DNA of 64,000 nt from a virus: positions 8,805 through 72,804 of IMG/VR virus record IMGVR_UViG_3300012920_000028; one strand, 5' to 3'. Every line of letters begins with the position of its first letter. Position 1 is the first letter of the stretch. Shown one piece after another: positions 6,187 through 50,588 of this stretch. A model generated the notes under the pieces. The model was given only the letters and a program-made list of their open reading frames with translations. It ran no database searches and was not told the origin of the DNA. Position numbers and translations under genes: made by a program.

Positions 6187-8875
6187 GGTAGTGTCGGAAA
6201 CCGGGAGTCAGGAGACGCTGGTCCCACCCGAGAGCATCATAGATGCCCTTTAGCGTCCCGTGAATGTGCGTCTTCGCGAGGGACTCCCAATCAATCGTGT
6301 ACTCCGCAAGTTCCTCTTCACGGCGGAATGCGATACGCCCGTTGCCCGGGATGACCGTCGGCCCGTCCTTGACGATGACCCACTTCACCTTGTCTCGCTT
6401 CGCGTATTCGTCCTCTTCGCTCTTCGCGAGGTACATGTTGTACCATAGCGCCCCCGACGAAAGCCAATAGTGCCCGTAGCACTTGTCGTCTTCGTTGAGG
6501 GTGTCTTGCTTCGGGCACGCGCCACAGTCGCAGACAATAGGCATTCCCCGCCAATCAACATGGTGCGGTAGGTGCTTCCTGAGCGTTTGTGCGGCGGTCA
6601 GTTCCTCAAGGTCAACCTCGCCGTCAAGGACGGCTTTCAGTCGCTTCTTGACCTTCTTCTGCACGACCTTTTCGGGGACCTTGTCGAAGAGGTCCATGAG
6701 AAGTCCGAGTTGTATGTCCGTTCCGAGAGAGGAAGTCGTCGTTCGCTTGGCCTGCATCCCTGACATCTTGAGACGAGCCCACGGTTCTTCTCGCATGTCG
6801 ATGTCGGCGACCTTGAATCCCTTCTTGTCGTCCCACACTTTCCGACCGGCATACATGCCCTTCACGTTGGCGAGGTAAAACCGGTCCATGATGACCTCAA
6901 GGTCAAGCGACATGGCGGTGGAATTGGTCCTCCCCTGCATTTCCTTTGTGATGTCCTTTCCGAGAGCCACCGCTTCGTCATGGACACGCTCGGCTTCCCA
7001 TTCGGAAGGGAAGACCACGAAGATTGAGTCCGTGTGTCCGTAAATGACGCGGAAACCGGCCTTCTCAGCCAACGCCTTCGCCGTGAGAAGGGCTTCACGC
7101 CCCCCAGCGGTGATTGAGGCAGCGACATCGCGGTCGAACCACGCGAACTTGTCGAAGGCCATGATACCGTACATGGACGCGCGCAGCCTCTTCACGCCGA
7201 GTTGCATAGCGTTCCACTTCGTAGCCGCCTCCTTGTCGTTCTTCGCTTCTGCTTCCTTGAGCAATGCCTTGTACTCGTCACGTTGTGTGTTCAAGCGGCG
7301 AACGATGGTAGGCAGGACACCTGTCGTGTCGGTTCGGAAGCGAACGCCACCATGCCCGACGCTATCGGTGGACAGGTGTTCCTGTCCTTCCCTGACTTTC
7401 GTTTCGGGACTGATGTTCTTTGCTTCCATGACGCTTGGGTATAGGCCCGCGTAATCGAGCATCCCGACGTTATCGTGCATACCAGCCGCATTGGTGTAGA
7501 CGTTGTCGTCTTCGGGGTCGCGTTCTTCGGGCTCCTCACCGGGGTGGAGGATGATTGCACCTTGAAGGTCGTCTTCAGCGTCACTCTCCTCACTGTAGGG
7601 GCGATACTTGGGGCGCCACCATGCTTCGCGATAGAACATGACGTTTCCGACACGGGATGCCTTCATGGTCGAGGGAAGTTGGCTACCGATGAGCGTCTGT
7701 TGAACCTTGTAGCCCTTGACGATGTTCCACTTCTCATCGAGCATGACGAGCAGTTCAACGTCGCGGATGTTGTAGCGGAGGAATTCGTCCCACGTGGCAT
7801 CGTAGTCCTTGTCGTACCATCCCGGGCTTGGGTTCTTCCCTTCCTTGAAATTGTCCCACGCTACCGCCTGAAGGCTCAATCCACCGGGCGGGTCTTGGTT
7901 CGTGGAGTCCTTGTACACGCGCTCATAGCACAACATGAGGTCGAGGGTATCAACACCCCGAATGGGGGCGTCAGTCACCTTGTAGCGGTGCCTGTTGCGA
8001 GGGTCCGGGTCAATCATGATTCCATAGGGTGAGAGGGAACCAGCGCCATAAACAGGCCTCGGGAACAGACCGTTCTCGCACTCCCCCGCCATGTCGTTCA
8101 TCAAATGGGGAATCCCGAGGCTTTCCATGCGATGATAAAGCGTCGGAAGGTCATACCCGGCACTGTTCCAGCCGGTCATGACGTCGAAGTCCATGGCGAA
8201 GAACCAATCACCGAATGCCTTCAGCATGTCGTACTCCGTGGTGAAGCGGTGTTCCGTACCCCATTCATGTCTGATGGAAGCCCTCGTCCAATTCGGGTGA
8301 CATCCAAAGGCGGTGTATTCCTTCGTGAAATTGGAGTACGCCGCGATGGAGTTGACCATCTGTGTGTCGTACCAAAGTCCCTCGTGAGTCACGCTCTTCA
8401 GCCACTTCATGCGCTCGGGGTCCGTGTCGCGGAACTGCAAGGCTTCGATGTCGAAATAGCAGACGTGATAGTCGAAGTCTTCGACCTCGATGTCGTTATG
8501 AATGAGGACGGCGTCTTCTTGAGGGAGAGAACCGCCCCACGTTGGCCCATAGTTGCGAAGGAAGAAGGACATGGCTCCACGAGTCACGCACTCGACCTTG
8601 TACAGGGGTTGCTTTTCGATGGACAACCCTTCGGGGGCCACGGAATGAACAAGGTCACTATCGAGGAGGAAGTCAATGGCTTCGCTCGCGTAGTCGAAGT
8701 CAGGCACATTCTTGCCCGGAAGAGCACGGAATGAAGAGGGCTGGATGTAAAACGTGGGGTATTCGTCATAGAAGTCCACAACGCGCACACCGTCCTTACG
8801 GTAGCGAACTGCTACGCGAGAACCGTCTTCCATTCGCCACTTCCCTTGTACCTGCTCGCACACGCTGATGTTCAT
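6149..8875 (-). CDS. polB: Family B DNA polymerase with 3'-5' exonuclease
   Basis: Exo motifs FDIE, GWNSAGYD, YNIRD. Polymerase motifs DYAGLYPS, KRLRASMYG, YGHTDS. ATG at 8875 overlaps the upstream stop. Confidence 0.95.
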   Translation of the reverse strand: MNISVCEQVQGKWRMEDGSRVAVRYRKDGVRVVDFYDEYPTFYIQPSSFRALPGKNVPDFDYASEAIDFLLDSDLVHSVAPEGLSIEKQPLYKVECVTRGAMSFFLRNYGPTWGGSLPQEDAVLIHNDIEVEDFDYHVCYFDIEALQFRDTDPERMKWLKSVTHEGLWYDTQMVNSIAAYSNFTKEYTAFGCHPNWTRASIRHEWGTEHRFTTEYDMLKAFGDWFFAMDFDVMTGWNSAGYDLPTLYHRMESLGIPHLMNDMAGECENGLFPRPVYGAGSLSPYGIMIDPDPRNRHRYKVTDAPIRGVDTLDLMLCYERVYKDSTNQDPPGGLSLQAVAWDNFKEGKNPSPGWYDKDYDATWDEFLRYNIRDVELLVMLDEKWNIVKGYKVQQTLIGSQLPSTMKASRVGNVMFYREAWWRPKYRPYSEESDAEDDLQGAIILHPGEEPEERDPEDDNVYTNAAGMHDNVGMLDYAGLYPSVMEAKNISPETKVREGQEHLSTDSVGHGGVRFRTDTTGVLPTIVRRLNTQRDEYKALLKEAEAKNDKEAATKWNAMQLGVKRLRASMYGIMAFDKFAWFDRDVAASITAGGREALLTAKALAEKAGFRVIYGHTDSIFVVFPSEWEAERVHDEAVALGKDITKEMQGRTNSTAMSLDLEVIMDRFYLANVKGMYAGRKVWDDKKGFKVADIDMREEPWARLKMSGMQAKRTTTSSLGTDIQLGLLMDLFDKVPEKVVQKKVKKRLKAVLDGEVDLEELTAAQTLRKHLPHHVDWRGMPIVCDCGACPKQDTLNEDDKCYGHYWLSSGALWYNMYLAKSEEDEYAKRDKVKWVIVKDGPTVIPGNGRIAFRREEELAEYTIDWESLAKTHIHGTLKGIYDALGWDQRLLTPGFRHYLMSSFDGSVPQC

Positions 8876-10519: not shown

Positions 10520-10905
10520 AAAATCATCTCCTCGCGATAGGGTTTCTTGGCATCAACGAAAATCCATGAGCGTTGGAGAGAGTCCGGAAGTTTCCCTGCT
10601 TTCTTGGCGAAGAAGTCGTCCTTGGTTTCGGAGAAGAGGACCTCGATGTAGGGTAGGACATGTGTTGGTGCGACAATATCCGGACGTGTTCCACACTTGA
10701 GACGGGCTTCCGTGCAGAAAGGGACGTCATGCTCAAGAAGAGTGAGGGCGACCTCGCAGACGCGGAGATTGTGCTCATACGTGTTCCCCTTGCTCAATTT
10801 GATGACCCCCCAATGAGGTTTGAACATAGGGTCGAGATGTTCACGCGACCAATCGTTCAGTTCTTTCTGCATTTTCGAGGAGTACCTCAAAGAATACCCT
10901 CCCAC
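10516..10905 (-). CDS. Putative PD-(D/E)XK-fold nuclease-like protein
   Basis: TEARL..GTRPDIV....YIEVLFSE. Confidence 0.55.
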   Translation of the reverse strand: MGGYSLRYSSKMQKELNDWSREHLDPMFKPHWGVIKLSKGNTYEHNLRVCEVALTLLEHDVPFCTEARLKCGTRPDIVAPTHVLPYIEVLFSETKDDFFAKKAGKLPDSLQRSWIFVDAKKPYREEMIF

Positions 10906-11765
10906 TCAAGGTCGTGAAGGTTTCCGTCTTGGTCGTAGTACTTCCCCTCATAGAAGAGCCGCTTCGAGACGATGTTCCCTACTACCGAAGCGGTCCAGCC
11001 GCTCGTTTCATTGCGAGCCGAAACGCCTTCCGCATTGAGAGTCTTCGCGATTGAGGCACGCGACATGCCGTCTTCGTGCATCGCGAACACACGTCGGACG
11101 GAATCCGCTTCCCGCGGCTCTATTTCGAGGACTCCCTTCAGTTCGGGGTCCCCTCTCCCGTCGGCTTCGTCAGCACTTCGTTTGTAGGCCGAGCGATACC
11201 CCATAGGAGGCCGACCGACGTGGCGCCCCGCGTTCTTCTTCCCCTTCAACCCCGAGGCGGTCCTCTCGCTGATGATGTCCGCTTCCATCTGAGCGACAGA
11301 AATCATGATTCGGAAGATGAGCATTCCCATGGCGGTCGTCGTGTCGATTTGTAGGTCACGGAAAACGAAGTCCTTCTCGGCTCGCTGAAGGGTCTCCGCC
11401 CATTCACCAGCATTTCGGACGTTTCGATGGAATCGGTCCATTTTTGCCGCGATAACGACGTCCCAGTTCTCCATTTCGCTCATCATGCGCTGGTATTCGG
11501 GGCGTTGGGTGTTCGTCCCGCTGAACCCTTCATCTCGGTATTCCTCGACGACCTCCCACCCCTGAGCGGCGCAATAGGCACGGCATTCGCGAAGTTGCTG
11601 CTCAATGGAGGTCTCGGACTGGGTTCCTCCGTCTTTGTCGCTTGTGGAGATGCGAGCGTAGATTCCAGCCTTCCTTGCAGAAGGGGCCGTTGTGAAAAAG
11701 GGGGAAAGTGAAAGAAGCAAGGTCAATGAGGCATACCCAAAGAGGGCGAATAGGGATTCAATCAT
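10887..11765 (-). CDS. Serine recombinase (resolvase catalytic domain plus recombinase DNA-binding domain)
   Basis: IYARIST (catalytic Ser), SIEQQ, DEGFSG..RPEYQRM, KMDRFHRN, ISERT..GL, GRPPMGY. Confidence 0.92.
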   Translation of the reverse strand: MIESLFALFGYASLTLLLSLSPFFTTAPSARKAGIYARISTSDKDGGTQSETSIEQQLRECRAYCAAQGWEVVEEYRDEGFSGTNTQRPEYQRMMSEMENWDVVIAAKMDRFHRNVRNAGEWAETLQRAEKDFVFRDLQIDTTTAMGMLIFRIMISVAQMEADIISERTASGLKGKKNAGRHVGRPPMGYRSAYKRSADEADGRGDPELKGVLEIEPREADSVRRVFAMHEDGMSRASIAKTLNAEGVSARNETSGWTASVVGNIVSKRLFYEGKYYDQDGNLHDLEWEGIL

Positions 11766-12246
11766 GGCTTGATTCCTCACCCTTTGTCCCTAAAGGGACG
11801 ACCATAAAGGTGCCGAGAGGTAAAGGGTCCGGTTTAGGTTAGGAATCGGGGCATGGTCCTTTGTGGTTGAACCGTTTAAGTCTCAAGAATCCACAGATTT
11901 CGACGCAAAGGAGGGGTTCTAAGGACCGGCTTTTCTGAACCCCTACATTTCCCCATTTTTCCAAGCAAACCGCCCTCGGTGGCCGCGATTCTCCCTCCCA
12001 AACATATGTTGCAGAAGGGGCCTTTCTCACAACGGGGGTTAGGAACCGTTAAGAGCCGGCCATCTCACACGAGCGAGTATGGAACCTTGGGGATGGCTCT
12101 TCATCATCATCATGCTCGGACTCGGCGCGTGGTTTTATGCCATCTCGTCGATGAACGCCTATGACCCACACAGGCCCATTGTGCCTGAACCGTGGAACCT
12201 CGGGGATGAAGAGGAATGACCGAAGAAACGAATGAGGTGAAGAAGA

Positions 12247-14291: not shown

Positions 14292-15209
14292 TTGACCGTG
14301 TTCTGTCAACCGTCGTTCGACCTTTCGTCCTTGGAGGATTGTAGCGTTGATTCGGTCGTCACCGACCCGTGCTACGCCGCACCACCGATTGAGGCATGGA
14401 AAGAGGTGTTCAGGGTCATAAAACCCGGAGGTCATGTCCTCGTTTTCGCGGAGCCCTCAACGTACCATCGCATGGCGGTGAATATCGAGGACGCGGGGTT
14501 TGAAATCCGTGACCAAATCATGTGGATTTACGGTGACGGCTCATTGAAGGACTTCGAAGTCACGTCTTTCCATGAATCGGTCGTGGTGGCGAGGAAGCCC
14601 CTTGAAGGAACGGTCGTTGGGAATGTTCTCCGGCACGGAACCGGGGGAATCAACGTCGACGGATGTCGGGTGGAACACGCCAATGAGGCGGACCTCGCCG
14701 CGAGTCTTGCGAAGAACCCCGGTCGGACCGATACCGTGACCAGCGGCGTGTATGGTGCCGACAGACCACAACAGCGTGTGAATCTCGACGGCCGCTGGCC
14801 AGCGAACGTCATTTTCGACAGGTACGCTGGAACAGAATTGGACTGGCAGACCGGACATCTCGCTGCAGGGAACCGTCCTGCGAAGCGAAATTACGCGAGT
14901 GCGTTCGCGCAGAATAAAAACCAGCAGGGAGCCGAAAACCCGGGACGTGTGGACGAAGGCGGTGGTGGCTCTCGGTATTTCTTCCGCGCCGAGCACACGG
15001 GGGAAGAGCGAAAGCATGGCCTCAAGCCCCTTTCCCTATGGTGCTACCTTCTTCGACTCGTCACTCCCGCTGGTGGGGTCGTGCTTGACCCATTCAATCA
15101 CTCACGACACGTGTTCAAAGCAGCCTCTCAGGAAGGATTTTCAGTTGTCGCTACCAGCAATCTTCCGGCGAACCCTCATATACCGGTCATCGTCGAACAG
15201 CAAGAATAG
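14292..15209 (+). CDS. Degenerate N6A/N4C DNA methyltransferase paralogue
   Basis: Clearly homologous to the next gene (YHRMAVNIEDAGFEIRDQIMWIYG), but DPPY is DPCY and DPFxGSG is DPFNHSR. Confidence 0.75.
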   Translation: MTVFCQPSFDLSSLEDCSVDSVVTDPCYAAPPIEAWKEVFRVIKPGGHVLVFAEPSTYHRMAVNIEDAGFEIRDQIMWIYGDGSLKDFEVTSFHESVVVARKPLEGTVVGNVLRHGTGGINVDGCRVEHANEADLAASLAKNPGRTDTVTSGVYGADRPQQRVNLDGRWPANVIFDRYAGTELDWQTGHLAAGNRPAKRNYASAFAQNKNQQGAENPGRVDEGGGGSRYFFRAEHTGEERKHGLKPLSLWCYLLRLVTPAGGVVLDPFNHSRHVFKAASQEGFSVVATSNLPANPHIPVIVEQQE

Positions 15210-16619
15210 GTGAATGAAATGGACATCAGGAATGGCGATTGCCTCGAAGTGTTGAGAACCGTTGAGTCAAACAGCATTGACTCTATCGTGACTGACCCGC
15301 CCTACGGGCTCTCCTTCATGGGAAAGAAGTGGGACTACGACGTCCCTTCGGTGGACATCTGGCGAGAATGCTTCCGTGTCCTCAAGCCCGGTGGGCACCT
15401 CCTCGCGTTCGCCGGTTCTCGCACCTATCACCGCATGGCGGTGAACGTCGAAGACGCGGGATTCGAAATTCGCGACCAAGTCATGTGGCTTTACGGAAGC
15501 GGATTCCCGAAGAGCCTCAACGTGAGCAAGGCCATCGACAAGGCGCTCGGCGCCAAGCGTGAGAGGGTCCGCATCTCGGCTGACGAAATCCGGAACCCCA
15601 AGAGCATTGGGAGCGGCCACGGCATCGAGGGTGGCGACCGACCGTGGATGCAGGAAGCCCTTGAACGGGGCTATCACGAAGTGGACGGCGAAGACCCCGT
15701 GACGGAGGAAGCGAAGAAGTGGGACGGGTGGGGAACACAACTGAAGCCCGCGCACGAACCATGTGTCCTCGCCCGCAAGCCCGTGGACGCAAGCATCACG
15801 CAGAATATCCTTGAGAACGGGGTCGGCGGAATCAACATTGACGGATGTCGCGTAGGCACCGAGGAAATGAAGGTCACCGCGTCGGACGGCGTCATCATCT
15901 CCGGCAACAACTCCATGTCCGGAGGGAACACCGGACGCATCGACATGGGGACGAAGACCGGGCGTTTCCCGTCCAACATCATTCACGACGGCTCCGAAGA
16001 AGTGCTTGACATCTTCCCTGAAACCGCCGGAGCGAAGCCTCACGGTGGGGACGGTGGAAAACTCGACACGCAGGGAATGGGCTGGGGCTTCAAGCGCATG
16101 GCCTCCGACCTCTCGGACCTCCCGGGTTCCGCCGCACGGTACTTCTATTGCGCGAAAGCGAGCCGTGCGGAGCGGGACGAGGGGCTTTCCCATCTCCCTG
16201 ACCATACCGGTGACGCCGCTCTCGCAAATGCGGTGTGTCAGAAGTGCCTCAAGCACCGACTCCAATCAAACCTCGCTCGCCGCTGCACATGTGCCGAACC
16301 GGAGTGGGGAGAGTCGCGCCTCGAGGCCATCAAGAACAACCACCCGACGGTCAAGCCCGTGGCCCTCATGCGCTATCTGTGCCGCCTCGTGACGCCTCCC
16401 GGTGGTGTCGTCCTTGACCCCTTCATGGGAAGCGGCACGACCGGCGTAGCGGCCTACAAGGAGGGCTTCAATTTTTATGGCATCGAGCGCGACCCGGACT
16501 ACTACGTCATCGCGAAGAGTCGTGTGGACTACGTTTCGCACGGTGAAGTGCGCGAGAACGCCGGAGAAGAGACGCCACGGCCACGGCCGTCGTCAATTTT
16601 CCACTGGGTTGATGCCTGA
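15210..16619 (+). CDS. Beta-class N6A/N4C DNA methyltransferase
   Basis: GDCLE, TDPPYG, HPTVKP, LDPFMGSGTT, GIE. Confidence 0.93.
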   Translation: MNEMDIRNGDCLEVLRTVESNSIDSIVTDPPYGLSFMGKKWDYDVPSVDIWRECFRVLKPGGHLLAFAGSRTYHRMAVNVEDAGFEIRDQVMWLYGSGFPKSLNVSKAIDKALGAKRERVRISADEIRNPKSIGSGHGIEGGDRPWMQEALERGYHEVDGEDPVTEEAKKWDGWGTQLKPAHEPCVLARKPVDASITQNILENGVGGINIDGCRVGTEEMKVTASDGVIISGNNSMSGGNTGRIDMGTKTGRFPSNIIHDGSEEVLDIFPETAGAKPHGGDGGKLDTQGMGWGFKRMASDLSDLPGSAARYFYCAKASRAERDEGLSHLPDHTGDAALANAVCQKCLKHRLQSNLARRCTCAEPEWGESRLEAIKNNHPTVKPVALMRYLCRLVTPPGGVVLDPFMGSGTTGVAAYKEGFNFYGIERDPDYYVIAKSRVDYVSHGEVRENAGEETPRPRPSSIFHWVDA

Positions 16620-35214: not shown

Positions 35215-36441
35215 TCACCCGTCGTAGGAAACGCGCTTCAAGCGCCGGACTTCTGCTGAATGAACGAGAACGTGAGGGTTGGTGTCAGCCTGAGAGGTGA
35301 CGACGCCGAAAGCACCGTTTTGACTCGCCCCGCTGCCGGGGCCAGAGGGGTCATAGGTGCGGACGCGGATAGGAGGGGGTGCATACTGAAGACCGGGGGA
35401 AACCTCCACCCGAAGACAGTTCGCGTAAGCGGAGCCACCATTTGTCGCGAACTTGGTCGGTAGGTTCACACTGTCAGTGACGCCTTGAATGGCGCCCGGG
35501 AAATACAGGTTCCTTCCGTCCTTGAGCCACATGCGCGCACCCGAGACGTATGTCCCAGCCGAAAGCGTAGCGCCTGCAAAGTCGGCGAAATAGATGTATT
35601 GGGACGTCCGAGAGGGCCACGTCCTTGCGTCGTCGTCGTTTCCTTGGACTCGAAGGACCGGGTCCACAAAAACGTGCATGGTGTTCGTCATGGCGGTCGT
35701 CGGGGCGGCGGCAACAGGGACGGGTTCTCCGAAAGAAAAGGTCGGCTTCCCGGCAATCCCCACATAGGGATGATATGCGCCGGGCGCAAGAGTAAGGCCG
35801 TTAGGCGTCATGAACGTCTTGTTCGGGACACCGGGCGTGTTATAGAAGTCAGGGGAATGGACGATACCGTAGGCGTTGTTCAGGAGGCTCGTTTCGGAGC
35901 CAAAAACATCATTGTGTGGAATCACGGCACCGCCGCTGAATCCAAGATTCTTTGGAGTGGCGAGGCCAGAACGTGAGGTGTACCCTCCAGCGCGGTCGGC
36001 ATCGAGGGGTTGACCGAAAACTTCCGTGGAGGGACGAATCCTGTTCCGGAGCACTACGCGAACGCGGCCGTCGAAATCTTCGGGGAGGTCAGGGTTGTAC
36101 AGCAAAGTGTAGCCGGCACCGGGGGAACCACCGTCAATCGCTTGGAAATTCGAAAGCAGGCGCCCCGTTTCGGGTTGGGAGAGCAGTTCAGCCGCGCTCG
36201 TGTTTTCATTCCGCCAGTCGTCGAGTTCCACATAGACCTCAAGGTAGGGGTTATCCGAAACCACACGGATTTCGTACAGGTCGCCGCGCTCCTTCGAATC
36301 GAGGAGGACGTATTCTCCACCCGAGTCAAGAATGAGGTTCCGGATTGACTCCCGAACCATTCGACGGTCAACGCGGCCTTTCTGCGTGACGTAAGGGGCA
36401 TTATCCGCGACATTCGCGGCGATGATGCTTTCTTCAGACAC
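35215..36441 (-). CDS. Putative structural (vertex/penton-like) beta protein
   Basis: 408 aa, beta-strand rich, in the capsid cluster. Inference only. Confidence 0.5.
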   Translation of the reverse strand: MSEESIIAANVADNAPYVTQKGRVDRRMVRESIRNLILDSGGEYVLLDSKERGDLYEIRVVSDNPYLEVYVELDDWRNENTSAAELLSQPETGRLLSNFQAIDGGSPGAGYTLLYNPDLPEDFDGRVRVVLRNRIRPSTEVFGQPLDADRAGGYTSRSGLATPKNLGFSGGAVIPHNDVFGSETSLLNNAYGIVHSPDFYNTPGVPNKTFMTPNGLTLAPGAYHPYVGIAGKPTFSFGEPVPVAAAPTTAMTNTMHVFVDPVLRVQGNDDDARTWPSRTSQYIYFADFAGATLSAGTYVSGARMWLKDGRNLYFPGAIQGVTDSVNLPTKFATNGGSAYANCLRVEVSPGLQYAPPPIRVRTYDPSGPGSGASQNGAFGVVTSQADTNPHVLVHSAEVRRLKRVSYDG

Positions 36442-36456
36442 GCTGAATCACCCCCC

Positions 36457-37401
36457 TCACTTCGGGAAGTACTCAGCGAGCAGACTCCCCGTAGTCGGAA
36501 TACCGGCCGGATTGATGATTTTGAACGTGAGGCGTCCACCCGTGCGGGCTTTGATTTCAGCGAGTTGGTTCATGCTGAGTTCCACCACGCGGTATTTCCA
36601 GCCGATGAGGCGAAGGCGACCGTCCACGATGTATTCTTCCGAGTCGTTGACCATCCTGAACGTAGGCAGGTTGTTCTCGCCGTGCTCAATCCAGATGGAG
36701 TATTCCCAGTTCGGGTCGTCACAGGAGGAAATCTGCCCGTCAATGAATCCAGAGAGGCCGAAGAGAGAGGACGTTCCGACCGAACCTGATTCCGTCTCAG
36801 GCGCTTCGTCGAGCACGAACTTGGGTACCCCCGACGGATGGCGCAGGTACATTTTGGGAGAGACGAGACCGGTGGCGGTCCCGCGGAAGCCGAGGGGGAT
36901 AGACTGGTCCGCGTCTTCGTCGGAAGGGGGGAGGCCGGGGTCGGTGGCCGAACTCGCGACGAGGTATTCGCCGTTCGTGGTGTCCACGAACTTTGGCTGC
37001 TGAGGGATGGTCGGGCACAATTGGTAGAGGTGACCGAAGTAGGGTTCGAGGTCGTCGAACTTGATATGGCCCGAGTCGTAGTTGGGGGAAAGCACCGTCG
37101 AGGTGACGCTACCCGTAGATGGGGAACCGTTGGGGAACATTGCCGCCGTAATCGAATTCTGTCCGTAGCGAATAAGCGCCGCGTCGGTGATTTGGTTTGA
37201 CCCCACCGTCACACTGTGCGTGTCCGTGAAGAAGAGGTCCACCGTAAGTGCCTCCACGCTCTCAACGAGAACGAAGCGGTCTCGAATCTTGCACAGGAAA
37301 CCGGGTTTCAGTGCAATTCCTTCGCCGCTGCTGCCATGTCCTTGTCCAAACGGGGCGCCGAAGACGCTGCCCGCGCGGATTCCTTGATTTCCATTCGCCA
37401 T
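36457..37401 (-). CDS. Candidate jelly-roll capsid protein
   Basis: Beta-rich 314 aa ending RLRLIGWKYRVVEL, reminiscent of the last strand of vertical jelly rolls. Position fits. Confidence 0.45.
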   Translation of the reverse strand: MANGNQGIRAGSVFGAPFGQGHGSSGEGIALKPGFLCKIRDRFVLVESVEALTVDLFFTDTHSVTVGSNQITDAALIRYGQNSITAAMFPNGSPSTGSVTSTVLSPNYDSGHIKFDDLEPYFGHLYQLCPTIPQQPKFVDTTNGEYLVASSATDPGLPPSDEDADQSIPLGFRGTATGLVSPKMYLRHPSGVPKFVLDEAPETESGSVGTSSLFGLSGFIDGQISSCDDPNWEYSIWIEHGENNLPTFRMVNDSEEYIVDGRLRLIGWKYRVVELSMNQLAEIKARTGGRLTFKIINPAGIPTTGSLLAEYFPK

Positions 37402-42983: not shown

Positions 42984-43244
42984 ATGTCCAATCGTCACGC
43001 CGTCCGGGCTCGTAAAATCCCGGTCAGTGTGACTCTTTCACCCGACGACTATGACTTTCTCGAAATGCTCGTCAACACGAGGCGTGTAGCAACAAGAACT
43101 CACGCTATCGAGCGTGCTGTTCAGTTGCTCAGGGAAGAGTTCCAGATGATGCAGTCATTGATGGCCCAACAGAGAGGAATGACCGGAGTCCCTCCACAAG
43201 CGCAGCAGCAACCGCCGAATACGCATCGTCGTCCTCCTCATTGA
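42984..43244 (+). CDS. RHH/CopG-like regulator
   Basis: PVSVTLSPDDYDFLEMLV.....TRTHAIERAV. TATA-like box about 26 nt upstream. Confidence 0.7.
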   Translation: MSNRHAVRARKIPVSVTLSPDDYDFLEMLVNTRRVATRTHAIERAVQLLREEFQMMQSLMAQQRGMTGVPPQAQQQPPNTHRRPPH

Positions 43245-43710
43245 CCTCGATGAGAAGTGAGGGCGTATCGAAAAGGATGCTCGCCACGTTCGTCAGGTAG
43301 TTCTCAAACCCCGCGGCTTCGGTGAAATTGGAAATGCCGTCTTCTTCGAACTGCTCCGTCATAGAAGCGAGCAGTTGTGGCTCCGTCACGGCGGGAATCG
43401 CGAACATCACGACCGTTGATTGCCCCCATTCTTCGAGGTTATACCCATGCACAGTTTCTCCTTCCACGAATGGGAAGGAATGAATGTCCAAGTGCACGTT
43501 TGCTTTGGGGAGCAATTCGAAGAACTTCTTTGTGAAGGTAGTGTCGTTCGGGCGGTTAAGGTCGATGACCTCGCGGGGGATTTCCCCGACGAGACTTTCG
43601 AACTCAAGACCTTCTTCCGTGAGCGCCCTCTCAAGAATCGGGCGGATGATGGTTGAGCCGAAGTCATACTGTCCGCTTGGCGCGGCGTGGGGGAAGGTCA
43701 GGAGAATCAT
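43129..43710 (-). CDS. Zn-dependent hydrolase, N-formylglutamate amidohydrolase / M14 peptidase-like fold
   Basis: TFPHA...D, R..IDLNR, LDIHSF, LLIEV. Confidence 0.7.
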   Translation of the reverse strand: MILLTFPHAAPSGQYDFGSTIIRPILERALTEEGLEFESLVGEIPREVIDLNRPNDTTFTKKFFELLPKANVHLDIHSFPFVEGETVHGYNLEEWGQSTVVMFAIPAVTEPQLLASMTEQFEEDGISNFTEAAGFENYLTNVASILFDTPSLLIEVNEEDDDAYSAVAAALVEGLRSFLSVGPSMTASSGTLP

Positions 43711-44426
43711 CTGTTCAGCCGCAGACGCTTGACCGATTTTACGCTACCGCCAGCGTTCCTTGGTTTCTCGTCACCAATCGGCCGACACTTGTTCCATGTT
43801 CCTGTCCCGTGCGTACTGTAGTACCAGTACTTGTATTCGGGGCTCGCGAAGAAGGGAACGTGTTCAACGTAGTGTTCGAGGTTGCGGCTCTTGAGGTAGT
43901 CGGGGCGGTCGTCAATCCTGAACACTACCTTGTTCTCGGATTGGCTCCATACCGTTTCCGACATCAACTGAAGACGTTGAGTCATTCCGATACCGACGAT
44001 TCCCTTTCCGGCGCCGACGAGCCACAGTTGCTCGATGCCGTCGTTGGTCCCCTTTCGGACGAAGGTCTGGATTTCGTCAATGGCGATGATTCGACGAATC
44101 CGCTTGAAACCCGGCTTATTGGAAACCATGAACACACGTTCGATGACCTTATTCAGCGCCGCTACTCTCTCTTCCTTTCCTACGGGTGGGTGGAAGACAA
44201 TGGAAGGTGTCTTGGAAAGGAGAGCGGCATAGACCTCCATTGGAGTCTTGCACACACGTCCGAGGTCCGTGATTTCTGCCTTGGGGTCCACAAAGATTGT
44301 GTGAAGGCCGTCCTTCTGAAAACGCTTGAACATCTCGGAGACGAAATACGTCTTGCCGCTGCGGGTCATTCCGAGAACTGCGGTATGTCGCTTCTTCATG
44401 TTCTCATAGAGCGCGTTTGAGACCAT
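43707..44426 (-). CDS. FtsK/HerA-superfamily genome packaging ATPase (A32/P9-like)
   Basis: Walker A GMTRSGKT, FVDPK, Walker B IAIDEIQ, MTQR and SQS..KVVF in a stand-alone ~240-aa protein. Confidence 0.85.
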   Translation of the reverse strand: MVSNALYENMKKRHTAVLGMTRSGKTYFVSEMFKRFQKDGLHTIFVDPKAEITDLGRVCKTPMEVYAALLSKTPSIVFHPPVGKEERVAALNKVIERVFMVSNKPGFKRIRRIIAIDEIQTFVRKGTNDGIEQLWLVGAGKGIVGIGMTQRLQLMSETVWSQSENKVVFRIDDRPDYLKSRNLEHYVEHVPFFASPEYKYWYYSTHGTGTWNKCRPIGDEKPRNAGGSVKSVKRLRLNR

Positions 44427-44893
44427 GCTACAACACCAGCACCAACGGCGAGAAGACCAAAGAGACGGCTCGGAGGGACGGCCATAAAGGACTCGGCGTA
44501 GGCCGGGAAGTTCTCCTTGAACCGTTGGCGAAGGTTGTTGTTGTCGGTCACCCGAAGCCATGCTACCGGGTTCATGACGTCGGGGTTCACGCCGCCGGTG
44601 TGCTTCAAGCCGAGAGCGTGACCGTATTCATGGGCGAGCAGGTCGAGGTTCCCCTTCGCACCGCTTCGCACCGTAATGGTGTTTCCAATGGTGACCCCTT
44701 GAGGGAAGTAGCCACGGTTCAAGATGTTGTAAGAGGCACGCGCCATGTCCCCTGCGTACCATTCCTGAATCTCTCCACTCGCGTGAATCGCGTTCACGTA
44801 TTGCGACCAATGTGCTTCGCTGAGGGTAGCAATCCGGACACCATCCTCGCCTACCGCGATAACGCGGAAAGAAGAGAACGATTCCGGCGTCAT
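44396..44893 (-). CDS. Metzincin-type Zn metalloprotease with C-terminal membrane anchor
   Basis: HEYGHALGLKH plus Met-turn (DVMNP). C-terminal LFGLLAVGAGVVAW. Confidence 0.85.
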   Translation of the reverse strand: MTPESFSSFRVIAVGEDGVRIATLSEAHWSQYVNAIHASGEIQEWYAGDMARASYNILNRGYFPQGVTIGNTITVRSGAKGNLDLLAHEYGHALGLKHTGGVNPDVMNPVAWLRVTDNNNLRQRFKENFPAYAESFMAVPPSRLFGLLAVGAGVVAWSQTRSMRT

Positions 44894-44897
44894 GTGT

Positions 44898-47800
44898 TCA
44901 CCACTCGAACATGTTGAGGAACTCGTCCTCGTCTTCCTCCACCCAGTCGTGCCTTGAGGAGTTTTCCTTGATGAGACCCGCTTTGACCGCAAGACTGTAG
45001 TCGCCCATTTTCTTCCCGTCTTTCATGACGGTGTTTCCGAGCGTGACGAAGGAATAGACGCGGCCGGACGCCCATTGGTGCTGCTGAACACCGGGACGGT
45101 GACCGGTGCGCCACGCCGCCAAACCCTTGTCGTACACCTTCTCAAGAATCGCCTTGTCGACACCTGTCGTCTTCGACATGCGGGTGAGGAAGGAGCCCTT
45201 CCCCTTCAAGGGACCATACAAGCGAGCGAACTTGGTTCGGTACTTGGAAGGCGTGGTTTTCATTCCCCGCGCCGTAGCCTTGATGTCCGATTTCCAGAAT
45301 TCGTACGCTTTCGGGTCGTTCACGTCGTACTTGTAGCCTTGGTCAATCTCGTACTCGGCAATCGCCTTCTCGACAGATGTCAGGCCTTTCAGGTACTTGG
45401 AAGGAATCTTCTTTCCACCGGGAGTACGGGGGTTCGGGCGAGGAAGATTCGACAGTTGCGTAATCGAAATGGTTTGGGCCGTGAGGGCTGAAGGGTAGGA
45501 AACGTCAGAAGGGAACCATGGGTTCGGGCGAGGAAGGTTCTCCTTCATCCAAGCATACGTCTTAGGTGCCTTCTCCTTGAGTTTGGCGCGGCCTTCGCCG
45601 ATACCGGGGATGAAATAGACGCGGGAATACAGGGGGGCGCGAAGCCTGATTTCATCGAGGTCCTCCTGCATTTTACGGATGTTCTCGGCGTATTCCTTGT
45701 CTGTGTAGTACGCTCCGGGCTTCGTGTGCGGCGCTTTCTTGGTTCGGAAACCAATGGTGTTCTTCTCGTCGCGGATTTTCGCTTGACCGCCCTTTCCCTC
45801 ACGCTTGTCGTTGTCGCCGAAGACGAAGAGGACCTCGGGGTGGTTCCGGACATATGTCGGAGTGATTTTCTTTGGTGGGTTGTCTTTCACTTCGCTTATG
45901 TTTTTCGCAGGTATTGTTTCTGGTGTGGTCCATTCCATACCGTTCAATGTGAGGTCAAGTGTTTCGGGAACCGATATTTCAAGTAAGGCAAAATCCTCAT
46001 GGTTGGGCATCTTGGTTTTCCAAAACAATGCTTCTTCTTTTTTTGAAGCAAGGTAAATTCTTGGTTTGAATGATTGGATGTATTCTTCAAACTTCATGTC
46101 CGGCGCTATCAAGTTTTTTTCTTTAGCAAATTCGTACAATTGGCCTTTCAATGCTCTTGTAAGTGGGCCATGTTGTGGAACAAGGCCATTTTTCTTGATG
46201 CTTGGTAGGTGTTCTTTCAATGTGAGATGGTACAGTTTTTTCGGCATCGGCAACTCTTCACCTCTTACGCTTTTGGCTGGGTTCTTCTTCGGACCCATCA
46301 ACACAGGCACTTTGCCGTACTTGCGCTTCTCCGTCATCCCAATCCACGGAACGTCGGGGCACGGAGGCATTCGGGAGATGTCGTGCTTGCGCGCCCAGCG
46401 CCACGGGTCGTGTCCCCACACCCACAGGCCGAGGAGGCGCCGTGAGACTTGGTTCTGCGTCTTCTGCTCGCGCACGAGGGGGCCTTTCTGGTCAGCGTTG
46501 TAGGGGAACGCGCCGTGGCGCTTCACGAAGCGCACCTGACGCTTGCACCAATCCCAATCGGTTTCTCCGTCGAGTGGGTCATCGGACGGGCCAGTCCATT
46601 CCTTCATGGCCTTCTCATAGTAGTTCTCGATGATGCGTGGCCCGATTTTGATGTAGTCCTTCGGGCCGGTCAGGCCGAGTTTGGCGCGCATTTTGAGGAT
46701 GCGACGGCCGCTCACACGCCCACTCTTGATGCCCTGAGCGTCTGCTTCTTCTTTGGAGAGACCGGCCTTCTTCCCGAGGGGAGAATCAAGGAACGCCTTC
46801 AGTTCCTTGTTCTTCATGTTGATGAGATGAACCCACTCCTCGAACCACTCGAAGAGTTCCTTTGGTGGGTTTTCAATTTCCCACGGCTCTTCCCCCGGTT
46901 CCCATTCCAAGTGGTTTTCCATCTGGTGTCTTGTCCATACAGGGTACTTCTTCTTTGGTTCCCACACTCGATAGGGCTTTTGAGCCGGGTCAGACCATGG
47001 CTTAAGGTTCCCACCACCTGCCGGGGAATAGAAGGAGCGACGGTACTTTTCTCGGGCCTGCTGGTCGAGGAAAAAGAACTCCACCCGTTCGACCTTCAGG
47101 TTCACGTCATCATCAGGGTTGAGTTCTGATTCTGTGGGGCCGAAGGAGAAGTTGTTCCGGAGGGTCGAAATCCAATTGATGTCTTGGAAGGGGAGGCGTG
47201 CTACGATGAGGACTTGGTTGGCGTGAGGGAAAAACTGCGCGACCGAAGTTCGTGTTTGAACGAACATGTCTGCTTTCTTCTTATCGGTGGTCCATGCACT
47301 GCCAAGTCCGTGCGTCTGCCATGACTCTTCGAGTTCTTCGCTCGAAGCGGGAGACCAAATCGCACGGTAGATGGGTATGGAGTCCCTCGAACCATACAGC
47401 GATTTCCAATGTTCAAACAAGTGTTCGAGGAACCTTTTGCCGGAAGAGCCGGTGTAGCCCCAGCGGCGGAAGTTCCTCTTCATTTCCTTTTTGTTTTCTC
47501 TTTCCACGAAACGCAGCAGACCTTCCAAACCACTTGATGTAAGGACGTCCTTCAATCGGATTCCTTCAGGTGGGTTCCCCATCGGGAGGGCAGAAGAGTC
47601 AAGCAAAGCGGAGAACCTTTCGGCTTGAGCATTTGGAACAAGGACATGTGTCCGGTTCTCAACCGGAGAGCGAATCGTCCCTTCAGGGAGGTAGGAGTCG
47701 TTGAAGTACGAAGGGATGGCGAAAGCACTGTAGTCGCCACTATCCGCCATGTTGTTGAAGGAAATGATGCGGCGGCGTAGTTCCCTGTAATCCCTTTCAG

Positions 47801-50588: not shown

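Follow-up and report, generated by a model that had tools for sequence, protein, structure and literature searches.

A giant modular protein with Asn-Pro joints in a magrovirus group D-like element: a possible enzyme kit for host takeover

The subject of this work is P0001, a giant protein encoded by a single open reading frame (ORF) on a 64,000-nucleotide stretch of DNA (hereafter the window; positions 8,805 to 72,804 of the IMG/VR record IMGVR_UViG_3300012920_000028). The chain is built of around 11 modules, several of them enzymatic, which are joined at Asn-Pro pairs; their borders could be placed and most of them could be identified. Cassettes are gained and lost at these joints in nature, and the gene lies in a conserved gene order. 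We propose that P0001 is a polyvalent-type modular chain that would be cut at its Asn-Pro joints into separate enzymes acting in host takeover, a tentative reading to which we assign a probability of about 45%. We infer the cutting, the protease and all of the targets, as well as when the protein would act (after late synthesis, early delivery or both). A sequence-only reading of the same DNA had taken positions 45525-50255, which correspond to residues 112-1688 of the ORF, as an anti-defence kit delivered at entry.

P0001 contains 14 Asn-Pro pairs, against 5.6 expected, and across 120 proteins of its family Asn-Pro is the most enriched dipeptide, with 1828 occurrences against 584 expected and a flanking preference of [V/P/A/I]-[R/K/L]-x-N-P-[P/R/S]. 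In an alignment of 25 sequences sharing 24-84% identity, the pairs N110-P111, N569-P570 and N708-P709 never vary, N335-P336, N898 and N1240-P1241 hardly ever do, and the linkers around the border pairs vary while the pairs themselves persist. Because both residues stay fixed inside linkers that otherwise change, even though their codons vary (the Pro codons in P0001 are CCA six times, CCC four, CCG three and CCT once), selection appears to act on the protein at these positions. Measured against 57 Pfam stretches from 19 proteins, the nearest Asn-Pro lies at a median of 10 residues before the start of a domain and 19 after its end. Only one pair falls inside these stretches against 52.1 expected, although this count re-uses homologous domains, and for the roughly 13 independent families about 12 pairs are estimated to be expected.

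A search with the whole length of the protein recovered 124 relatives of 1042-3318 residues, all of them from marine metagenomes; in IMG/VR the whole protein found no relative, and a scan with the DUF7831 alignment found one related record of 110 kb (L172). Similarity along the chain is conserved at residues ~20-895, ~1240-1435 and ~1720-1875, and variable at ~900-1240 and ~1436-1720. When scored in 25-residue bins, it drops to 3-15 of 119 relatives over residues 926-1225 and 1451-1700, and its level shifts in the bins holding NP898, NP1240, NP1436 and NP1719. The JAB-like, HD and guanylate kinase modules, together with two modules without an assigned function, form a core that is nearly universal among around 120 relatives. 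The variable slots of the relatives hold NUDIX, glutaredoxin, GNAT, SET, Ham1, NDK, PAP2, DUF5754, DNA ligase and TFIIS zinc ribbon modules.

The loss of a complete cassette is recorded in wild strains. Contigs from three of four runs (X2, X3 and X5; two studies) join position 46863 to 47569, and the 705 nucleotides skipped correspond exactly to residues 1005-1239, the first candidate ADP-ribosyltransferase (ART) module. The deletion is in frame and is flanked by two identical 8-nucleotide AACCCACC repeats encoding Asn-Pro-Pro; positions 46988-47557 have no contig cover in any of the four runs, and the evidence is the bridged joint only. Contigs of other strains stop at 45881, which is the joint between the second ART candidate and the DUF7831 module, and at 46312, ten residues before the Asn-Pro at 1436. 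The variable cassettes are thus dispensable and exchanged at the joints in nature, and the loss of precisely the ART cassette with the frame kept shows that this exchange is active.

Three catalytic domains of the core had been named by the sequence-only reading, a guanylate kinase, an HD phosphohydrolase and a JAB metallo-isopeptidase, of which the first two were borne out and the third is plausible. For the predicted guanylate kinase (residues 708-897), which we consider confirmed, Pfam PF00625 matches residues 716-877 with an E-value of 1.1e-19 (71.3 bits against a cut-off of 25.2), the PHROG guanylate kinase family matches at 7.7e-23, and a PDB search with the single P0001 sequence gave 44 rows, of which 42 are guanylate-kinase-type chains (best 4.3e-19) and the other two chance matches. 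In the alignment to the M. tuberculosis guanylate kinase (3e-20) the P-loop, TTR, PR and lid arginines are retained. The Tyr of its 'DYHF' stretch, which we take to be a GMP-binding residue, is replaced by Lys in the window kinase and by Arg in the family consensus, and given this replacement the substrate preference may differ from GMP. The further remark that such kinases are atypical for archaea fits a small test, where the family was matched in 10 of 14 control genomes, all 10 bacterial, and in one of five searched archaeal genomes.

The HD module (residues 335-568) is confirmed at the family level as a predicted HD phosphohydrolase. Pfam HD (PF01966) is matched by 24 of 25 relatives, the best at 1.2e-5; the module of the window reaches 20.6 bits against a cut-off of 22, and that of the relative P0013 27 bits. 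The residues H366, H374, H438, D439, D487, D516, H520 and H521 are invariant in the arrangement H...HD...D...D...HH, and a profile search of the PDB with this module returned nothing usable.

The motif of JAB/MPN+ (JAMM) domains has the form E ... H-x-H-x(7)-S-x(2)-D. Residues E159, H196, H198, S208, D210 and D211 of P0001 are invariant in alignments of 25 and 42 sequences, and a JAB at residues ~159-211 is plausible on this motif. It is the profile support for the earlier claim that proved weak: Pfam Prok-JAB matches one of 42 members of the module (E 0.0032), the NCBIfam desampylase family matches at E 0.034, and a profile search of the PDB gave four rows, none of them a JAB. A motif scan of the neighbouring ORFs showed no credible second JAB-like motif, the match in o657 having been judged not credible.

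The remaining conserved modules could be characterized to different extents. Neither module 1 (residues 1-89) nor the module at residues 569-707 has a family match in Pfam or NCBIfam. The module at residues 1240-1435, which went unmentioned in the sequence-only reading, shows the highest conservation of the whole family (56-91% identity over 29 relatives), and this suggests a role central to P0001 itself. DUF3140 is found in 28 of its 30 members (best 2.3e-5, slightly under the cut-off) and DUF6321 additionally in nine; a profile search of the PDB gave no usable match.

Two ADP-ribosyltransferase-fold domains and a macro-like domain had been claimed for the variable stretches. We found invariant catalytic-type residues and weak but consistent toxin-like folds for the first ART candidate, a marginal match for the second, and for the macro-like domain a lead that comes from structure comparison and is not seen by profiles or Foldseek. 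ARTs of the R-S-E type carry an Arg on strand 1, a Ser-x-Ser and a Glu-x-Glu. In 18 sequences of the first candidate (residues 1005-1239) Y-R (1074-1075) and E1153-x-E1155 are invariant; there is no clear S-x-S, and W1099 is invariant instead. The AlphaFold2 (AF2) model of this module has a predicted local distance difference test score (pLDDT) of 80.4. With this model, Foldseek gave no match at E <= 0.001 in the PDB; of the 42 PDB rows listed, around 30 belong to toxins that ADP-ribosylate their targets or to IcmQ, which is ART-like, with E-values of 0.045-1.1. With the all-against-all aligner VIA, ARTs make up 11 of 50 rows at Z 4.6-3.3 and align to the C-terminal two thirds of the module, the N-terminal third giving helical chance matches only. 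Against viral models, four unnamed phage proteins were matched at E <= 0.001 and named phage ARTs ranked lower. Pfam showed no ART match, and a word search found no stand-alone relatives at near lengths. ESM Atlas provided leads with scores of 0.90-0.93, namely DUF4765 for residues 1005-1239 and PARP- or Arr-bearing clusters for residues 1436-1569. An R-S-E-type ART-like module at residues 1005-1239 is weakly supported.

For the second candidate (residues 1436-1569), a word-based homolog search returned nothing at near lengths, and a representative search gave just seven matches, one of them a low-complexity repeat protein. When a profile of six sequences was compared with the PDB, Tpt1/KptA accounted for 9 of 13 rows, with E-values starting at 0.0013, and one row was DarT1 at E 0.21. 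These matches span only the first ~35 residues, a strand-helix of the form 'LYHxT..NL.SI..GL.P', and the Tpt1 alignment lands at chain positions ~86-120 of Tpt1 chains of 180 residues. The NCBIfam match to Tpt1/KptA is weak (E 0.022), the relatives show weak Pfam matches to PTS_2-RNA (Tpt1/KptA), DUF7002 and PARP, and the third catalytic position varies among them between E, D and M. On these marginal matches we read this module as a putative H-type ART fold. Among the relatives, the giant modular P0155 (2063 residues) combines NUDIX, SET, the Pfam family ART-PolyVal and a Tpt1/DarT-like module in three copies; weak PARP and Tpt1 matches coincide with one of these copies.

The DUF7831 module (residues 1570-1688) was modelled by AF2 from an alignment of 63 sequences with a pLDDT of 95.6. 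Its best VIA matches, at Z 6.0-4.1, are macro domains, among them TARG1/C6orf130 (Z 6.0), Poa1p (6.0), alphavirus nsP3 (5.7), PARP9 (5.4) and DarG (5.1). Of the top 25 rows (Z 6.0-3.9), 15 carry the name of a macro, X or ADRP domain or of ADP-ribose-1''-monophosphatase, and another five presumably are macro entries as well. The macro-domain matches align 95-104 of the 119 residues, all of them below the VIA trust level of Z = 8. A G29-x-G31-G32 loop, invariant in the alignment, follows the first long strand of the model, in agreement with the description of macro domains in passages of PMC9503650, and the model has three strands of at least three residues. Foldseek found no macro domain in the PDB with this model, hhalign against five bona fide macro domains gave 0.5% and 0.9%, Pfam Macro (PF01661) had no match in P0001 at E <= 1, and profile searches of the PDB with two DUF7831 alignments returned nothing usable. 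We regard a macro-like fold as a consistent lead from the model. Relatives of DUF7831 stand alone as small hypothetical genes in 101 phage records (Caulobacter, Rhizobium and others), and the family is also present in 226 IMG/VR stretches, some from giant-virus-named bins; if the fold is indeed macro-like, the lead towards ADP-ribose biology would apply to all these viral genes. The spacer that follows DUF7831, framed by NLPRPNP repeats, may be what is left of a cassette since lost, or a joint that has been duplicated.

Table 1. Position of P0001, its modules and the neighbouring genes in the window.
Feature	Residues	Positions	Strand	Remarks
P0001, whole ORF, modular 'polyvalent'-type protein	1-1896	44898..50588	minus	1896 residues, single ORF
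Module 1	1-89	50322..50588	minus	ends at Asn-Pro 90; conserved in relatives
JAB/MPN+-like-motif module	90-334	49587..50321	minus	E159, H196-x-H198, S208, D210/D211
HD phosphohydrolase module (predicted)	335-568	48885..49586	minus	Pfam HD in relatives, invariant ligands
Module without family match	569-707	48468..48884	minus	bounded by invariant N569-P570 and N708-P709
Guanylate kinase module (predicted)	708-897	47898..48467	minus	Pfam, PHROG and PDB matches
Variable module	898-1004	47577..47897	minus	in only 6 of the relatives examined
ART candidate 1, R-S-E type	1005-1239	46872..47576	minus	presence/absence cassette; YR 1074-1075, E1153-x-E1155
Module with DUF3140-like N-terminal half	1240-1435	46284..46871	minus	best-conserved module
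ART candidate 2, H-type	1436-1569	45882..46283	minus	Tpt1/DarT-like N-terminal 'LYHxT...GL.P'
DUF7831 module	1570-1688	45525..45881	minus	Pfam 1.5e-32
30-residue spacer	1689-1718	45435..45524	minus	between two 'NLPRPNP' repeats
DUF5824 module	1719-1896	44901..45434	minus	conserved C-terminal; Pfam 2.7e-22; in most relatives
Small HExxHxxGxxH (metzincin-type) protein		44396..44893	minus	next gene downstream; C-terminal hydrophobic tail
FtsK/HerA-type P-loop ATPase		43707..44561	minus	candidate genome-packaging or DNA-transfer ATPase
o193 and ATPase		43129-44561		
o408 and o314		35215-37401		
Giant neighbour ORF, NP-enriched		50560-53967	minus	1135 residues; weak DNA-ligase C-terminal match
Giant neighbour ORF, NP-enriched		58106-61687	minus	1193 residues
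Serine recombinase		10887-11780		
Two adjacent DNA methylase genes		14292-16619		

According to the explanation that we propose, the P0001 chain would be made in the infected cell from a conserved block that includes the gene of an FtsK/HerA-type ATPase. Its core (JAB-like, HD, guanylate kinase, DUF3140-like and DUF5824) is interleaved with slots for swappable cassettes, occupied here by the R-S-E-type ART-like, the Tpt1/DarT-like ART-fold and the macro-like DUF7831 modules. The around 11 modules would fold independently, each short linker between them carrying an Asn-Pro. Cutting at these joints, whether by Asn-driven self-cleavage, by the JAB-like module of P0001 or by the adjacent metzincin, would release separate enzymes that could handle the nucleotide pool and write or erase ADP-ribose marks during host takeover. 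A host-takeover enzyme kit of this kind is plausible.

Several observations weigh against cutting or against the activities assigned. All the ART and macro fold matches remain below the trust levels of the tools (Z <= 6.0; Foldseek E >= 0.045 against the PDB). The spacing of the JAB-like motif is two residues longer than in 32 reference Prok-JAB sequences, and the hhalign comparison with Prok-JAB, at 38.9% and 43.9% over 48 and 18 columns, covers the motif only. The 20 gene-holding runs listed include no RNA run. Asn-Pro is also a common helix-start pair, the re-use of homologous domains lowers the weight of the Pfam count, and the 8-nucleotide repeat at the deletion means that joints can act at the DNA level, so that the punctuation is possible without proteolysis.

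Alternatively, P0001 may remain uncut as a giant multi-enzyme or scaffold, in which Asn-Pro would be a helix-capping linker and its codons short repeats for cassette recombination. The 705-nucleotide deletion is bounded by identical repeats of Asn-Pro-Pro codons, so the joints work on DNA, and some polyvalent proteins (N4 vRNAP, ArdC and TraC1) are transferred or packaged unprocessed according to passages of PMC5512222. However, the Asn-Pro residues are invariant despite codon variation and variable linkers, which argues for selection on the protein; their flanking preference resembles a recognition site, the conserved core holds a protease-like module, and a metzincin gene adjoins. We judge the uncut chain to be rather unlikely.

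An extended form of the cutting model would make the Asn-Pro joint dual-purpose, a protein seam (self-cleaving or protease-read) and at the same time, through its codons (often for Asn-Pro-Pro), a DNA microhomology for in-frame cassette swaps, and would make DUF7831 a minimal ADP-ribose-removing macro domain within the array. We consider this extended form doubtful. If true, it would describe a plug-and-play effector array with a polyprotein logic undescribed for prokaryotic DNA viruses, in which DUF7831 is a component common in phages and giant-virus bins.

The source record is a single contig of 72,804 bases, catalogued as a virus record and without direct or inverted terminal repeats. It is probably partial, since a protein identical to P0001 is encoded on a separate 124-kb contig of the protein collection. 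The ORFs of the window include an Rpb1-type RNA polymerase subunit, a family-B DNA polymerase, an archaeal-type thermosome, the FtsK/HerA-type ATPase, a PD-(D/E)XK nuclease, a serine recombinase and two DNA methylases. For "magrovirus group D", the main text of Philosof et al. (2017; PMC5434244) lists DNA polymerase, thermosome, resolvase and RNA polymerase A; morphogenetic genes were not found there and the nature of the group was left open. The main texts of two later papers again report group D without a capsid gene (PMC10160649, PMC11706807), and one of them describes an enrichment in the cell fraction and a possibly plasmid-like state (PMC10160649). By this exact listed gene set, the predicted genes of the record match the published capsid-less group D, and P0001 belongs to a 'magrovirus group D'-like uncultured marine archaeal-type virus. 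The thermosome was uninformative as a host marker, with 34-51% identity to many archaeal phyla. The serine recombinase is in line with the genes published for group D; it could point to an element that integrates or is maintained like a plasmid.

The gene order around P0001 is conserved in 62 related metagenome loci: two or three giant ORFs are followed by the P0001 gene, the HExxHxxGxxH protein, the ATPase and o193, and later by o314 and o408. At the same position, the HExxHxxGxxH protein is present in 24, the ATPase in 41 and o193 in 32 of these loci. The first of them was recognized by the motif in its translation, shows weak matrixin, ZapA and serralysin matches, and is a candidate processing protease. 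The best match of the ATPase is phrog_2666, a phage packaging family (2.5e-18); it also matches DUF87/HerA and, weakly, TraD, VirB4 and CedB. The 314-residue product of o314 shares 46-88% identity with 14 relatives, has no Pfam match and gave no usable match in a profile search of the PDB. In 'group D magroviruses', for which published work reports no structural genes, the block formed by o408, o314, o193 and the ATPase may fill the place of the missing morphogenetic module. The 36 ORFs of the window, scanned with Pfam and PHROG, showed no portal, MuF or recognisable capsid gene near P0001, and the Pfam scan showed no relaxase or type IV secretion system (T4SS) genes. Two giant neighbouring ORFs likewise have an excess of Asn-Pro, with 9 pairs where 3.3 would be expected in the one of 1193 residues and 5 where 1.9 would be in the one of 1135, and may share the modular grammar of P0001.

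This context bears on the delivery favoured by the sequence-only reading, according to which P0001 or its pieces would be carried in the virion and enter the host together with the DNA, to act against ubiquitin-like, NAD+- or nucleotide-based immunity. The architecture is like that of T4 Alt and of phage polyvalent proteins, for which packaging into the head is predicted (passages of PMC5512222 and PMC9503650). The gene lies within a conserved block holding a packaging-type ATPase, the cassettes turn over between strains in the way that conflict genes would, and the TARG1, Poa1p and DarG types come closest to the macro-like fold. Nevertheless, the scans of the window found no portal, MuF or recognisable capsid gene close by, and group D itself is reported to be enriched in the cell fraction and possibly plasmid-like (main text of PMC10160649). 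The guanylate kinase and HD modules of the core, like the NDK, Ham1 and NUDIX modules that relatives carry, are enzymes that work on the nucleotide pools for an extended time and would fit action during replication better than delivery at entry; the near-universal core resembles self-processing with nucleotide housekeeping and not a variable counter-defence. Entry delivery is in our estimation unlikely. From the earlier picture of a kit, the combination of unrelated enzyme modules, including 'writer'- and 'eraser'-like ones for ADP-ribose, and the fast turnover of cassettes hold up, whereas the core looks like nucleotide housekeeping.

That the element is instead plasmid-like or conjugative, with the polyvalent protein moved along with its DNA by an FtsK/TraD-like ATPase, seems very improbable: the published doubt on the nature of group D (main texts of PMC5434244 and PMC10160649), the weak TraD, VirB4 and CedB matches, the serine recombinase and the fact that more of the known polyvalent proteins stem from conjugative elements than from any other source (up to 40%; passages of PMC5512222) are countered by the cataloguing of the source as a virus record, the phage packaging family as best ATPase match, the lack of relaxase and T4SS genes in the Pfam scan of the window, and the 0.1-0.22 um size fraction given in the source name of one relative.

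Returning to the chain cut at its Asn-Pro joints, no published description of it was found in the literature on DUF5824 and Poseidoniales virus polyproteins or in the main texts of PMC5434244, PMC10160649 and PMC11706807; in these three magrovirus papers, supplements aside, the terms "polyprotein" and "guanylate" are absent. Published work has not settled whether "Group D magroviruses" are viruses, plasmids or something else (main texts of PMC5434244 and PMC10160649). If our reading holds, group D-type elements would carry large polyvalent-type proteins, which are otherwise almost only bacterial. New in this work are the fold evidence for DUF7831 and for ART candidate 1, the link with group D, and the finding that one cassette is deleted exactly in nature.

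P0001 can be compared with several known systems. In the viral polyproteins of RNA viruses and African swine fever virus, a single chain gives rise to many enzymes, and in reovirus mu1 self-cleavage occurs at Asn42-Pro43; unlike the polyprotein systems of RNA viruses and African swine fever virus, the element carrying P0001 is a prokaryotic-type DNA virus. Tpt1 proteins have two lobes, of which the N-terminal one binds RNA and the C-terminal one, the ART lobe, binds NAD+. In the 134 residues of the second ART candidate, ~35 of which align, there is no counterpart of the N-terminal lobe, and as far as the sequence goes this module is ART-fold-like but no Tpt1. For DUF7831, the best structural matches, namely TARG1/C6orf130, Poa1p and DarG (Z 6.0, 6.0 and 5.1; 97-104 of 119 residues), are macro domains, from which the module differs by its size of only ~119 residues and by having three strands and not a six-stranded sheet. 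In YscU/FlhB proteins, autocleavage takes place at a conserved NPTH motif (PMC3189125), and a bond between Asn and Pro can be broken by chemistry that the Asn itself drives; the P0001 family has instead many Asn-Pro pairs per chain, set in variable linkers, at which we infer cleavage. T4 Alt is a viral R-S-E-type ART for host takeover (passages of PMC5512222 and PMC9503650) and is among the weak viral fold matches of residues 1005-1239 (E 0.38). In contrast to Alt, which in these passages is a separate gene product, packaged and injected, residues 1005-1239 are a cassette in a giant chain and dispensable in wild strains.

The closest known kind are the polyvalent proteins of bacteriophages and conjugative elements (Iyer, Burroughs, Anand, de Souza, Aravind 2017; PMC5512222). 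Examples above 1000 residues are almost all bacterial, with a 'particular paucity' in archaea, and a search of this paper by terms did not find the Asn-Pro joint rule of P0001. P0001 departs from them by its archaeal-type host context, its nucleotide-metabolic core (guanylate kinase and HD) and the lack of a portal, MuF or T4SS link among the 36 ORFs of the window. What both have in common is a chain of many unrelated catalytic domains that are shuffled between relatives, and polyvalent proteins hold ART, GNAT and JAB-type domains as well as peptidases proposed to self-process (PMC5512222). With around 11 modules, P0001 falls within the range that marks the polyvalent proteins, in which a single chain combines two to fifteen domains that are unrelated and for the most part catalytic, and its relative P0155 carries the ART-PolyVal family itself.

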